Numbered from the whole stretch's first letter, positions 3,041 to 39,804 are shown. The stretch is DNA of 63,027 nucleotides, filler included, from Globobulimina sp. (GCA_003354225.1; 46 parts of 46 records of this genome joined end to end with filler, not necessarily neighbours in it); one strand, 5' to 3'. Numbers and translations are program-made. Notes: a model not told the origin generated them from the sequence alone.

Positions 3041-4019
3041 ATGAGAGATAAAAACATTTTCAGTGAAGAGAGTTTCCTCCATTTATTGGACTATACCCAC
3101 TTTGAAAACGAATTTATGCATAAACCAGAATGTAAAGACGGTGAAGAGTGTGAGTCATATAATCGTTTATTAGACGGCGGGAATGAATTAAAAGATCGGT
3201 GTCATGTTAAAATATACAGACATCATTATTTTGCGCCGTTACATACTACGAATTCATCAGAGGGGGTTATACAGAAAGACATCTTGAAAAACGCAGAGAT
3301 TTTATCTCAAATAAATGGCAAATTGCAAGCGATTGATATCAAAAAATGGAGAAATGGCAGAGATTACGCAGTGTTGCAAATTATGACATTGGCGCAGTCG
3401 TTGGAGAAAAGCATCAGAGATGTCGCCATTGCTAAGAGTTCGGGAGGCGGTGCTTCCATTATTGGCGGTGGCTTATGCCTAAGCGGTGCTATTTTGGTCC
3501 CCTTTTCAGCGGGAACATCATTGGGGTTATCAGTGGCTGGTGTATCTGTCATGGTGGCTGGTGGTGTGACGACGTTAGGCAGTGGTTTGGCAAAGTTTTT
3601 TATAGAAAATGACAAAGTGAAGAGATGCGTTAAAGCATATGAGAGCATACAAGCCGATGGAAGGCGGATAGCGTTTCTATTGGATGATTATCAAACTACT
3701 TTCAGTGCCACACAACAGAATATATCGGTGTGGTCGGCGCTTTGTTTGGGAGCGGGTTCTATTTCTCAATGTAATGGAGTACGAAGTTTGGTTGGAATGG
3801 GAAAGGCAATGCGAGCATTTAAGGTGCTTCTAAGCCGATTAGCAGCAAGTGTTGCTACGGAAGGAGCAGAAGATGCTGTATTAGTTGCGAGAAGTGCTGT
3901 GTTTGGAGGAGGTAGTTTTGTGGGGAAAGCAATGGGTTGGATTGGTGGTCCGTTGGGTGTAGCATCTGGAATCTATGATATTTTTGATGGTGTTAAAACG
4001 TTTAAAGACGCTGAGAATG
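3041..4019 (+). CDS. Apolipoprotein-L-like protein (3' partial), preceded by an unrelated Cys/His segment; probably mosaic
   Basis: IAKSSGGGASIIGGGLCLSGAILVPFSAGTSLGLSVAG resembles the ApoL Gly-rich hydrophobic hairpin. Confidence 0.55.
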
Positions 4020-4196
4020 NNNNNNNNNNNNNNNNNNNNNNNNNNNNNNNNNNNNNNNNNNNNTTAATTAATTAANNNNNNNNNNNNNNNNNNNNNNNNN
4101 NNNNNNNNNNNNNNNNNNNCAGTCTTTTTTAAAAAAAGTCACACTGTGCGAATGGACGCAAAACATGGTGTCCCTGTTTTAGTTTTGATATGACTG

Positions 4197-4949
4197 TTGA
4201 TGCATAATCCATCATTCATCACTTTCAGTGGATTGCTACCCGCAATATTTGGTACTCTCACAATTGTATCTTGCTATCATTTGAGTGTTAACATATATCA
4301 TCATTTCCCGCCATGGTTATGGATGCCCGTGATTTCGTTGTTAGGCTGCTTAGAACCGGAACACTCAATGTATCAAATCGGATTCACTCTCACTGCACTC
4401 TCAACATTTTTGTTTTATTTTACATTTCAAAATGGATTATTGAAAGTTTTGCCATACAATGGATCTAAAATATCAATCGATGCATTAAAATATACCATTT
4501 TATTATGTGCAATCGGTGTATTTGGACAAGGTGTAATTACATTAAATGAGGATCTGGTAAATATATTGCTGAATGAGAATGAAATCGAAAATTATAACCC
4601 ATCAAAAAAAGACATATTGCATCAATTCTGTGCATTGTTATTCTTTTTTTCAGGATTAATTCATGGAATGGTGAGTGTCTCCATCTATTTTAAATTAAAT
4701 GATGCGGAGATCTTCAAACTATTAAAGTTTTCAAGATGGTTTAAATTATTTCTATTATTTCTAAGTTTATTGCCAATCACAGCCTCGATTGTAAACCATC
4801 CCACCAATTTCAATAACAGCGGGAAAACCCATGCTATGCTAAATAAAGCCGGTGGGGCGCAGTGGAGTGTTGTTTTTACATATTTGGCATTCTTCTCCTC
4901 ATATTCATTGGATTATTATTTGATATTAAAACAAAGGAGAAAAACCTAA
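4197..4949 (+). CDS. Frag1/DRAM/Sfk1 (TMEM150-like) 6TM membrane protein
   Basis: MPVISLLGCLEPE matches the family motif PxIS..G..xPE; LHQFCALLFF; six TM segments. Confidence 0.7.
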   Translation: MMHNPSFITFSGLLPAIFGTLTIVSCYHLSVNIYHHFPPWLWMPVISLLGCLEPEHSMYQIGFTLTALSTFLFYFTFQNGLLKVLPYNGSKISIDALKYTILLCAIGVFGQGVITLNEDLVNILLNENEIENYNPSKKDILHQFCALLFFFSGLIHGMVSVSIYFKLNDAEIFKLLKFSRWFKLFLLFLSLLPITASIVNHPTNFNNSGKTHAMLNKAGGAQWSVVFTYLAFFSSYSLDYYLILKQRRKT

Positions 4950-5039
4950 GTAAGTTTTCAAACCACTTGAGAGTGTGCAAGGATTAGCAATATAATATTT
5001 TTGAAATTAAATGACAAAGTAATATTTAATTTTTACAAG

Positions 5040-5391
5040 TTATAACTTTGAGGGTCCGATCATATTTTCCACCGCCAGCAGGTTCTGTTTGAAATCCGGC
5101 AAACTGAGGTGGATGCTGGCTTCATCGTGAATCAAGTGGTTGCCCAATTCGTGCCCAGCATTCTTCATTCTATCGATGAGCATTTCATGGCCGACGGCAT
5201 GATCCCCGATTACAAAAAAAGTGGCCCTAATATTGTGTTCAGCAAGGATGGTCAGGATTGCCGGAGTGAGGCTGTGACTGGGAGAGTCATCGATAGTCAG
5301 GGCCAGGATTTTCTGTTCCGTTTCAACATAGAACAGGGCATCCGGATATTGGTTTGCCAGTTGCCTAACTAAAAGGCGAGGTTTGAAAAAA
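5040..5391 (-). CDS. Polysaccharide/chitin deacetylase (NodB, CE4) fragment, truncated; absent from the ORF track
   Basis: Manual translation gives ILALTIDDSP..ATFFVIG..GHELGNH, then a stop before the expected RxPY motif. Visibly more GC-rich than the adjacent gene. Confidence 0.85.
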
Positions 5392-5492
5392 ANNNNNNNN
5401 NNNNNNNNNNNNNNNNNNNNNNNNNNNNNNNNNNNNTTAATTAATTAANNNNNNNNNNNNNNNNNNNNNNNNNNNNNNNNNNNNNNNNNNNN

Positions 5493-6749
5493 TGCTCTTG
5501 CGTTATCCCATATGAATTTGACCACTTTTCTTGCTTCGTCTGATGTAATTTCGTTCAAATCTTTTTCAGAGTTGATGACAAGAGTTGATATTGCATCTTG
5601 TTCCACCGAGAAATTTTCTTGTTGTCGTGTACCTCCTCCAACCAGATGTTGTACATACATGTCCTGTCTGACTGGTTCATCTTCAATGATTGCATGGATA
5701 CCCACGGGACGTCTGGCTACCTGGCCTTGTGCAGGCTCTGGATTTGCTTGAGCCGTATTTACGATACGTCTTGCCATACGACTCCAGATTGGTCGGTCCA
5801 TTCCAGCCAAATAGCTTTGTACTATCTGTAGATCTTCTCTGTTCACTTTGCGTTGGAATTCACGGCACATTCGTTCATTTCTATTGAACATAAATTCTTC
5901 TGGTGGATGAGCTCTGTCAAAATAAACACGAAAAGTATTGAGAAATTCAAAAAGTGACATACTACCCTGTTGTAATCTATCGTAAGCGTCAGCCAAAGCG
6001 CCTCGATCGCAGGTTGCATTACCGTATCTTTCACGCAGTTCCAGTAAAACCATATAAGGTCGAAATTTATCGCCTTGTTGAGCATGTATTTGTCTGTACA
6101 AATTACTGGGCGCACCTCCCAAAAAATAAAATACATATTCTTCGAAATAAGCACGGTCGCCCTGCAAAGCACAAACAATGCGAGCTTCTTCGATCCACGA
6201 TTCTAAATTTTGACTTTGTAAACCTTGGAACACCAGTTCAGGTTTGACGCATGTAGCATTAAACTTGGTATTTTTCTTTGCCACAATTGGACGATCGGCT
6301 TGGGCCCCCTCTGGGTATGGTGTTTGTTTGCGGGGTACTTTCGCGTTAAAATCAGAATGATCACCTCGGCTATTATTTCCGATTTGTGATCGATCGCATG
6401 GATCGGGTCGATTTCGGGACCGATCACGGCTTTCATCGTGACCCCCACGAAGTGTGATATTTCTACTCGAATCGTTACCTTGATGATATGAATTATATTT
6501 AACCATTTCAGCTGTATTGTTACCTTTCGCCTTCTTTGGTGATTCATGTGCACTGCGCGAATGACACTTACTTGGTTGCGCACGATAATGTCGATTTGAT
6601 GCTTTTGATCGATTTCCCTGTGTATCATCACACGATTGCCTTGCAGTAGCAGGCAGTAGTTTTTTATAGACCCCCAAATCGATAGACTTTTGATGACTAC
6701 ACTGGCCGTCACTTTTTACTGTACGATGTGACGTATATAATTTATTCAA
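5493..6749 (-). mobile_element. Ty3/gypsy-type LTR retrotransposon Gag-like ORF (partial)
   Basis: FQG..LESWIEE..LGGAP..LRERYG..LQQGSMSLFEFLNTF follows the retrotransposon capsid/major-homology-region pattern. Confidence 0.7.
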
Positions 6750-38332: not shown

Positions 38333-39520
38333 NNNNNNNNNNNNNNNNNNNNNNNNNNNNNNNNNNNNNNNNNNNNTTAATTAATTAANNNNNNNNNNNN
38401 NNNNNNNNNNNNNNNNNNNNNNNNNNNNNNNNTACAGATACACCTTTGCAACCAATTGACTGGGGTCAACTAAGTTCGGAGGTTAAACATTCGAAAGCAT
38501 GTCACATTTTCAGTCACTTCTAGCCGAGATTGGATTTTTAAACTACGATAGCGGTTTACATACGAAACATCTATGAAACATAAGCATATGCTATCTTAGT
38601 TTAAAAGCAATCTCAAAAACAACAGGCGATTTTGCCACAAAAAATATAGACATTAGACGTCGTGTGGAGGATATATTTATATCTCATATTATGTGAATCG
38701 AATGGTGTTTTTATTTTGGCGGTAAATATATCACAAACATCCAACACTTCCAACAAAACTGCGCCAATTCCAATGCACAACGCACTGCCATACAATCAAC
38801 ACAATAATCTGAGTCATAATGCATTAAACACAACAAATAAATCCAAACCACGCGAAATGCACACATTTAACCCTTCGAACTCTATGACAAATAAACCAGT
38901 CCACCAACGCAGTTCATGTAATTCTTATATATATATGCATTATTTTTTTTGTGTGACACAAACAAATAAACAAATACTTACTATTCATACTCCTCATCAT
39001 CTTACAACAACTCATATCATTCCAATGCATATATGAGTAATATGAGCAAAACCAGTAACAATTCATCATCATATCACAGCAATAATGAATTTTCAGCCTC
39101 CTGCACTGCACAGTCCATTCCCGCATAAATCCACACAAAAACAGCAACAATTCCTCGCCAAACAAAGTGTCGCCATTAAACACAAAGAATGATGGCTTTG
39201 CTTTGCCCAAAAAATCACTCAAATCGCAACATAATACGGACATAAAAAGCGATGCTGAAAGGAAGGTGATATCGGATTTGATTGCATGCAAACGAGAAAT
39301 GGCTCGGTTACGCATGAAATACAACAAACAATTTCAGAGTTTGCATAATAAGTACAATGAAGCAGTCAAACAAAGGAATGCCAAAGAAAGAGAATAGAAG
39401 ACTCGCCATCAAACTCATCGTTATCACCGACGTGATTATGTGTTTGATGATAGCGATTTAAGTGGTATTTATGTGAATGAAAACGAAGAGAATGTGATAA
39501 TGTACGGCGTCTAATTTTTT

Positions 39521-39584
39521 GTGATGATAGCTTAAGGAAAGCATCTATTTAAAGAAGATTTGGGTTCAAATCCCAATCATCACA
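39521..39584 (+). ncRNA. tRNA-like element (64 nt) with truncated anticodon arm
   Basis: Acceptor stem GTGATGA/TCATCAC plus A; D-stem GCTT/AAGC; T-arm TTGGG-TTCAAAT-CCCAA; followed by TTTT. Confidence 0.75.
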
Positions 39585-39804
39585 TTTTATTATTTTTGTT
39601 ATTTAATTTCTGTTTTTTGTTTGTGTTTCTGTTGTATATGTTTGTATACTTTTGCAATTTTATATAAAAAAAACATATATATTTTTCATAAAATATCAAA
39701 CAAANNNNNNNNNNNNNNNNNNNNNNNNNNNNNNNNNNNNNNNNNNNNTTAATTAATTAANNNNNNNNNNNNNNNNNNNNNNNNNNNNNNNNNNNNNNNN
39801 NNNN

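Follow-up and report, generated by a model that had tools for sequence, protein, structure and literature searches.

A compact tRNA-like element in Globobulimina-associated DNA is one copy of a dispersed, high-copy repeat, probably of the Pol III type

The tRNA-like element at positions 39521-39584 (plus strand) of the DNA analysed here belongs to a family that is dispersed and has at least hundreds of copies. We consider it probable that this family is a tRNA-derived, non-decoding repeat of the Pol III type, i.e. either a simple SINE-like element or a tRNA-mimic gene family. In the repeat unit a short leader precedes a 64-nt cloverleaf whose anticodon arm is a stub; a T-run follows immediately, and then a T-rich tail of variable length. 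The element is homologous to tRNA, its compact architecture is conserved, many copies are found in different flanks, and its stems are better conserved than its loops.

The window, that is, the whole stretch of 63,027 bases that was analysed, comprises 46 separate pieces of 1271-1273 nt each. The pieces are separated by spacers of 44 N, TTAATTAATTAA and another 44 N, across which features are unreadable. Their G+C content is about 26-46%, many of them hold long ORFs, and one ORF belongs to Pfam family Ribosomal_L3 (E 9e-75). Over the 46 contigs the longest ORF ends with TAA in 19 cases, with TGA in 9 and with TAG in 5, and is open in 13, showing that the standard stop codons operate in the window. 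Since all three stop codons are used as ORF ends, read-through of TAG and an alternative genetic code were ruled out. At 5493-6749 (minus strand) a 419-codon open frame fills a contig of 42% G+C; no Pfam family was found for the 419-aa product.

The contig that carries the element extends over 38433-39704 (1,272 nt) and has repeats at its ends. The left end is occupied by a second high-copy repeat (38476-38647) with a depth in the public run X1 of approximately 3,100-6,000, compared to about 25 for unique sequence; in other copies of this repeat an A-rich stretch follows after 38646, like the poly-A end of a retroposon. The upstream ORF (39167..39397, plus strand, 76 codons as listed) ends with the stop codon TAG at 39395-39397. 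It is a unique neighbouring gene outside the element and matches no Pfam family. Contigs from X2, X3 and X5 are approximately 95% like the window over 38723-39395, and all diverge at 39395. These contigs lack the 71 nt found at 38913-38983 in the window, a segment that does not have GT..AG ends, and at 39314 they have 140 other letters, which adds 138 nt net (46 codons) and preserves the frame. The X2/X3/X5 version of the upstream gene looks like a diverged allele, a paralogue or a copy from a sister species. Between the TAG and the leader of the repeat lies a spacer (39398..39509, plus strand) of low-copy repeat sequence, with an X1 depth of 53-218. It stays open for 38 codons in the frame of the ORF, and no Pfam family was found for these codons. 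Two pieces of 39-40 nt from this part of the contig (39394-39432 and 39436-39475) are also present elsewhere among the contigs of X2, X3 and X5.

The tRNA-like core of 64 nt was identified by a match to the Rfam tRNA family, by its fold, by a covariance model of our own (R1) and by 15 further copies. The match to the Rfam tRNA model (RF00005) covers 39521-39584 from end to end with 53.5 bits (E 6.7e-11; gathering score 29), and no other Rfam match in the 63-kb window reaches the gathering score. With R1 the element scores 91.1 bits and is likewise the only copy in the window. Minimum free energy folding gives this cloverleaf too (-17.3 kcal/mol, z -3.19), with an energy equalled by none of 200 shuffles. 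All parts named in the initial annotation were recovered by reading the sequence. The acceptor stem is formed by GTGATGA (39521-39527) and TCATCAC (39577-39583) with 7/7 pairs, and is followed by U8 and A9 (TA, 39528-39529, from sequence reading). The D arm (39530-39542) has a stem of four pairs, GCTT/AAGC, and a 5-nt loop, AAGGA. The T arm, TTGGG-TTCAAAT-CCCAA (39560-39576), is canonical, the discriminator is A (39584), and a terminator-like TTTT (39585-39588) stands directly 3' of it. The tail (39585..39695, plus strand) comprises the TTTT, a T/G-rich degenerate simple repeat and a downstream stretch in common with L002. We take TAGCTTAAGGAA at 39528..39539 (plus strand) to be box A-like, and GGTTCAAATCC at 39563..39573 (plus strand) to be box B-like, as in type 2 promoters of Pol III. 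The latter stretch becomes GGTCCAAATCC or GGTCTAAATCC in 5/15 copies.

The central arm can be read in two ways. In the Rfam alignment the anticodon arm has 3 pairs (UCU/AGA) and a 6-nt loop. This truncated-arm reading places nucleotide 26 (A) at 39543, the stub UCU-AUUUAA-AGA at 39544-55, and AGAU at 39556-59 between the stub and the T arm. It corresponds to the shortened arm of the initial annotation, but 39543-39559 can also be read as a stem of 5 pairs, one of them an A.A mismatch, closing a 7-nt loop (UUUAAAG) that presents the anticodon UAA. This second reading demands the absence of both nucleotide 26 and the variable loop. ARAGORN, run as had been proposed, found no tRNA in the window with default settings; its metazoan-mitochondrial mode called the element according to this second reading, as a mitochondrial-type tRNA-Leu(taa).

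Several searches located further copies of the element. An exact 27-mer search of prokaryote genome contigs gave a single contig, PIVX01000327.1 (L001), of 939 nt; it is the same contig as L002 and was counted once. This contig is titled as part of a gammaproteobacterial MAG, yet it carries a protein-kinase ORF. The assembly that holds it (G001) was searched with 225 nt of the window and with R1, and it contains 8 copies, located on short AT-rich contigs. A scan of metagenome contigs with an exact 22-mer from the 3' part of the element gave 7 copies on PJEL01 contigs together with L032. According to the parts of PMC6783311 used here, these accession series derive from a metagenome assembly associated with the foraminifer Globobulimina. 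L032 shares only the T arm and the 3' part of the acceptor stem and is a different, GC-richer tRNA-like sequence; it was rejected and excluded from every copy count. In viral contigs the 3' pattern had 0 matches. The one viral sequence found with a degenerate 5' pattern (L049) is coding-looking, lacks a T arm and scores 24.5 bits with R1, and was taken as a chance match. The search for copies suggested by the initial annotation gave 15 besides that of the window; the dispersed, high-copy nature of the element had not been foreseen.

The length is 64 nt in 13/16 copies, and 63, 67 and 74 nt in the others. The 67-nt copy has a 4-nt insertion in the central loop, and the 74-nt relative (L009) has the same acceptor stem and T arm as the window element. 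Since the 64-nt form is kept in 13/16 copies, the loss is not an assembly deletion, and its confinement to the decoding arm is real, as had been claimed. Five further compact copies score 46.5-51.4 bits with the Rfam tRNA model. In an Rfam run over 20 sources with fast filters, 7 of the 14 other compact copies were not among the matches listed; one of these seven, L039, scores 49.5 bits in a smaller run. The contigs that carry copies are approximately 0.6-5 kb, with one copy per contig, and beyond about -40/+120 the flanks are unlike between loci. Neighbouring genes are ordinary eukaryotic ones, among them Pkinase (L002), Myosin_head (L033) and dsrm.

The read depth in X1 gives a rough view of the copy number. 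This run contains 0.47 of the sampled words of the element's contig. We take it to be DNA of one organism because the unique part (38691-39378) is evenly covered, at a depth of 22-47. The depth is 5,831-5,971 at 39547/8, reaches 38,165 at 39573 (the mean of the bin 39551-39593 being 29,008), and falls to about 2,400-2,500 over the downstream tail (39594-39679). The ratios suggest roughly 200 to 1,500 copies, rough numbers because the depth is summed over all contigs placed at 85% likeness. The lower element depth in X2, X3 and X5, together with the uncovered parts, was excluded from the evidence. In X1, 367 contigs aligned to the element's contig, with many different loose ends, and 28-33 of them carry the variant at 39547/8. 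This variant (39547 A>T and 39548 T>A) accounts for about half of the X1 depth and is present in 12/15 aligned copies.

Conservation was assessed in an alignment of 15 copies (A1) with 42 paired and 22 unpaired columns. Standard pairs fill 97.8% of the pair cells, compared to 33-52% when the partners are slid. At D-stem pair 13-22, 11 copies have C-G and the other 4 have U-A, a compensatory change of the kind that the initial annotation had proposed to look for. Columns vary in 6/42 paired as against 13/22 unpaired positions (Fisher 0.0004), and in the 8 rows of the window and G001 in 4/42 as against 10/22 (Fisher 0.0028); the copies are related, so that column counts overstate their independence, and 7 copies were found by the exact 22-nt pattern of the 3' part, so that part of the contrast between stems and loops is ascertainment. 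There is a single change in the acceptor stem over the 15 copies, and the D loop differs in most of them. In X1 the positions that vary at 10% or more are all in loops. The overall pattern is one of kept stems and varying loops, in line with what had been suggested from the intact stems of the window copy. The nucleotides that matter for decoding and for the tRNA elbow are less constant. Read as a 5-pair arm, 6 of the 15 copies have the anticodon TAA, 4 have TGA, and TAT, CGA and TCA occur once each; the loops of the remaining 2 copies are irregular. G18G19 is found in the D loop of 2/15 copies, the T loop is altered (TCCAAAT, TCTAAAT) in 5/15, and the discriminator is A in 11/15. With a varying anticodon and elbow, and with a junction that departs from that of a normal 5-pair arm, the element is most readily seen as something other than a decoding tRNA.

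Pair counts favour neither form of the central arm, each of which is broken in 2-3 copies where the other holds. A second tRNA-like family was observed in the same material: L039:1061-1127 (minus strand, 37.7 bits), L040:418-486 (31.1 bits), L041:564-630 and L043:715-776, the last two being detected with R1. Its D arm and AAGAU stretch are as in the first family, and it has UCAGG/CCUGA as T stem instead of UUGGG/CCCAA, so that the T stems of the two families differ by two pairs with both sides changed. Its acceptor stem has 5 pairs, the length of its central hairpin varies, and no T-run follows immediately. The Rfam alignment of the second family puts AAGAU as variable loop, and the ungapped BLAST alignment of L002 with L009, as read from its coordinates, appears to set AGAU against the variable region of L009. 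Both favour the truncated-arm reading, and judged by these alignments we lean somewhat towards a truncated anticodon arm over a 5-pair arm without linkers.

The initial annotation had drawn attention to a stop codon just upstream of the element. The TAA (39512-39514) followed by T6 is indeed present, and it closes the frame of 39167 only if the TAG at 39395-39397 is read through. However, the TAA lies within the 11-nt leader TCTAATTTTTT (39510..39520, plus strand), which is part of the repeat unit. The same leader precedes L009, and also L002 with a small insertion; BLAST similarity to the window begins at 39504 for L002 and at 39510 for L009, and in X1 the sequence ahead of 39513 and of 39519 gives way to the flanks of other copies. 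The stop codon therefore belongs to the repeat and not to the neighbouring gene, whose own stop codon, TAG, is 123 nt upstream of the element. A stop codon is found within 10 nt upstream in 10/16 copies, which is what AT-rich DNA gives. Among the frames that close within 10 nt of the element in the 16 copies, none is open for at least 60 codons, the longest being 59 (L036) and 38 (window).

Eight loci have an ORF of at least 330 nt beside the element. The element is downstream of the ORF on the same strand in 4 (window, L002, L033 and L038), upstream on the same strand in 2, and on the opposite strand in 2. The enrichment directly after stop codons that the initial annotation had proposed to look for was not observed, as no other copy adjoins the end of a long ORF. 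Similarity outside the core extends differently in different subsets of copies. L002 (735-939) and the window contig (1072-1263) match at 85%, L033, L037 and L039 have 38 nt upstream in common at 98%, and a minisatellite of approximately 40-nt units with a GC hairpin abuts the 5' end of the element in L003, L004, L005, L007 and L008. The hairpin of the minisatellite unit is GGCGGC-GAA-GCCGCC, and the minisatellite occupies L003:128-587 (12 units) and L005:744-1092. It may be part of a larger mobile unit or a preferred target. Both the shared 38 nt and the abutting minisatellite argue against simple retroposition of a tRNA-sized transcript. On the 3' side a run of at least four T starts at +1 or +2 in 11/16 copies and at +7 or +8 in 2/16, and is absent in 3/16.

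Ordinary tRNAs are present in the assembly G001, which also holds 8 copies of the element. One contig (L042, G001:C217) carries seven canonical eukaryote-type tRNAs at 55-1339 within 1.3 kb, some of them just 11 nt apart. Six are complete and score 59.5-71.7 bits (Thr, Leu, Ile, Gln, one of 84-86 nt called Ile, and Phe); the seventh is truncated by the end of the contig and scores 50.5 bits. A normal tRNA-Leu(TAA) of 82-84 nt is included. The element is identical to the six canonical tRNAs at 39-47/64 nt (61-73%). In a search for the parent, alignments of the core with five canonical tRNAs gave 31-37/49 matches with Phe as the best in 2/3 rows, whereas full-length identity is 73% for Thr and Leu and 64% for Phe. 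No single parent can be named. Together with the kinase contig, the tRNAs on L042 suggest that eukaryotic contigs have been binned into a bacterial genome.

What the element might be, other than a repeat of the Pol III type, can be judged from these data. The design of a cloverleaf with a stub arm is that of mascRNA (PMC11693755 and PMC8457004, in the parts covered), and in 4/8 loci the element lies downstream of an ORF on the same strand. The element could accordingly be a 3'-end module, co-transcribed with a Pol II gene, where cleavage by RNase P at 39520/39521 would form the 3' end of the mRNA, which is the stop-codon-linked processing put forward in the initial annotation. We regard this as improbable. 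The TAA is a letter group of the repeat leader common to L002 and L009, the ORF ends at the TAG 123 nt away, and none of the elements has a frame of at least 60 codons closing within 10 nt. The other four loci have the element upstream of the ORF or on the opposite strand, 5 copies follow the minisatellite rather than a gene, and the T-run and the box A/B-like sequences point to an independent Pol III unit. Moreover, mascRNA-menRNA does not figure in the 7 matches that Rfam gave for 39300-39700 at E up to 10. Even less probable is a decoding role as a very compact tRNA-Leu(UAA), which would have 5 pairs in the anticodon stem, lack both nucleotide 26 and a variable loop, and perhaps be made in the nucleus for mitochondria without tRNA genes. 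The variant at 39547/8 does give a perfect ATCTT/AAGAT stem and keeps U33, UAA and A37, the discriminator is A in most copies, ARAGORN calls the element tRNA-Leu(taa) in its mitochondrial mode, and mitochondrial genomes of foraminifera and radiolaria are reported to be without tRNA genes (10.1101/2023.02.03.527036), which is relevant only if the host is of that group. On the other hand, the anticodon differs in 7/13 copies with regular loops, and the pair counts favour a 5-pair stem no more than a 3-pair one. To our knowledge no cytosolic tRNA combines a linker-free junction with a 5-nt D loop that has no GG. The placement of AGAU/AAGAU as variable loop, seen in the BLAST coordinates for L009 and in the Rfam alignment of the second family, also speaks against it, as does the normal tRNA-Leu(TAA) in G001, and hundreds of copies of a single isoacceptor would be out of proportion. 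The rejection of the element by ARAGORN in default mode and the size of the contig, just 1,272 nt with repeats at its ends, would fit an artefact of the assembly, an insert of mitochondrial DNA or a lone, decayed tRNA pseudogene. This explanation, which the initial annotation had named as a refutation of its own reading, has a negligible probability and is already refuted: the same 64-nt form recurs in many contigs of X1 and, in two collections, at 12 further loci, the stems are intact, and the flanks hold nuclear-type eukaryotic genes.

A closer competitor, though still unlikely, is a selected family of tRNA-mimic genes for small RNAs, producing a Pol III RNA of about 64 nt that would be cut by RNase P and RNase Z and used by the cell. 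In such a family the RNA would be a scaffold with free loops, e.g. a regulator, a decoy for tRNA enzymes or a chromatin boundary at Pol III sites. The distribution of varying columns between paired and unpaired positions, the nearly invariant acceptor stem, the compensatory D-stem pair, the two compensated T-stem pairs between the related families, the T-run right after the discriminator in most copies, and the restriction of variation in X1 to loop positions all agree with such a family; the constancy of the acceptor stem, beside a D loop that differs in most copies, exceeds what decaying copies should show and speaks against the repeat reading. In contrast, the T loop and with it box B are changed in 5 of the 15 copies, the GG of the D loop is lost in 13/15, 3 copies have no T-run, the low diversity in X1 is equally well explained by recent amplification, and related copies inflate the independence of the column counts. 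The broader proposal that minimal tRNA mimics are kept under selection in hundreds of copies, with fixed helices that show compensatory changes within and between the two related families and with a freely varying D loop and former anticodon region, and are made by Pol III and cut by RNase P/Z as small RNAs, decoys or processing or boundary signals, we hold to be a shade less likely again. The element as a candidate for an RNA used by the cell is nonetheless a real possibility, albeit an unproven one.

We therefore return to the tRNA-derived repeat of the Pol III type as the best explanation. In this model RNA polymerase III would be recruited by the internal box A- and box B-like sequences, and the T-run would stop transcription to give a tRNA-sized RNA. 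The RNA would be tRNA-like in its fold and could be trimmed by RNase P and RNase Z, but would be unable to decode. Copies may have spread through the genome by retroposition as a simple SINE, consisting of a head and a tail, or by duplication of a tRNA-mimic gene at the DNA level, and the window copy would have been inserted 123 nt downstream of an ordinary gene. Transcription, processing and mode of spread are here predicted from sequence. The non-decoding Pol III-type RNA of the initial annotation fits the T-run in 11/16 copies and the anticodon that is not kept, and the element is a candidate substrate of RNase P/Z. Target-site duplications were sought in the 10 copies where this could be tested; 0/10 were better than 5% of shuffles, the best being L038 with 11/200. 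The tail is T-rich, and the upstream leaders of 11-38 nt that copies have in common sit badly with spread by reverse transcription.

The passages of the SINEBase paper used here (PMC3531059) define a SINE as a short (<1 kb), interspersed, non-tandem genomic repeat, take an identity to a tRNA of at least 60% over at least 60 nt as a further criterion, and regard promoter boxes as an indication, not as a proof. The shortest SINE listed there is 75 nt, and rodent ID, camel vic-1 and armadillo DAS-I are given as simple SINEs of head and tail (PMC3531059, same passages). With 16 copies of 63-74 nt in unlike flanks the element is short and interspersed, and its identity to tRNA is 61-73% over 64 nt. 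The depth ratio in X1 is about 5,900/25 over the 5' half of the element and 38,000/25 over its 3' half, which points indirectly to at least the required 100 copies, provided that X1 is DNA as we infer. Like the simple tRNA SINEs, the element is dispersed and high-copy, has box A/B-like sequences and a variable tail of simple repeats, and forms subfamilies defined by shared substitutions. It differs from them in its length of 64 nt, in keeping cloverleaf pairing with compensatory changes, in having the T-run directly after the tRNA-like part, and in a tail that is T-rich instead of A-rich. It also differs in that target-site duplications do not exceed shuffles in the 10 testable copies, that no partner LINE is known, and that some subfamilies share 38 nt or a minisatellite upstream.

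Other known systems resemble the element in part. mascRNA and menRNA, from the 3' ends of vertebrate MALAT1 and NEAT1, are cloverleaves of approximately 60 nt in which the anticodon arm is reduced and the acceptor and T arms are intact, and like them the element is a plausible substrate of RNase P/Z. They occur in single copy at the ends of Pol II lncRNAs and do not have a Pol III unit of their own, whereas the element is present in many copies, comes with a leader and a T-run of its own, and is inconsistent in its position relative to gene ends. In some animals the truncated 'armless' mitochondrial tRNAs are no longer than about 60 nt; they come from single organellar genes and lack the D or T arm, with the anticodon arm retained. 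The element is likewise short and is accepted by ARAGORN in the metazoan-mitochondrial mode, but its D and T arms are retained, what is missing is the anticodon arm or the linkers, and it is a nuclear-type sequence that is repeated. In Entamoeba, normal decoding tRNAs are encoded in tandem arrays with short tandem repeats between the genes. A very high copy number of tRNA-type genes is common to both cases, and a minisatellite abuts 5 copies of the element; unlike in the arrays, its anticodon arm is stunted and its copies lie beside different ordinary genes, on contigs of 0.6-5 kb. The Entamoeba tRNA gene arrays are mentioned in PMC3079666. Finally, the Arabidopsis GUT15 RNA is, like the element, tRNA-like and not a decoder; in the part of PMC6152437 used here it is described as a stable RNA from the intron of a Pol II transcript, encoded at a single locus.

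In the literature on foraminifera and Rhizaria, searched without supplements, no described SINE or tRNA-like element of this kind was found, and the main text of PMC6783311 has no occurrence of tRNA, repeat, SINE or transpos. The most suitable place for the element is among the tRNA-derived short repeats, where it resembles a simple SINE or an amplified family of tRNA-mimic genes. If it is a simple SINE, it would be shorter than any in SINEBase and would come from a group of protists in which the literature searched held no such element. For annotation, the elements pass the Rfam threshold for tRNA and would inflate counts of tRNA genes, and eukaryotic contigs that contain them sit in a bin labelled as a bacterial genome. 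For the organism itself, the contrast between fixed helices and free loops leaves room for a cellular use of the RNA.
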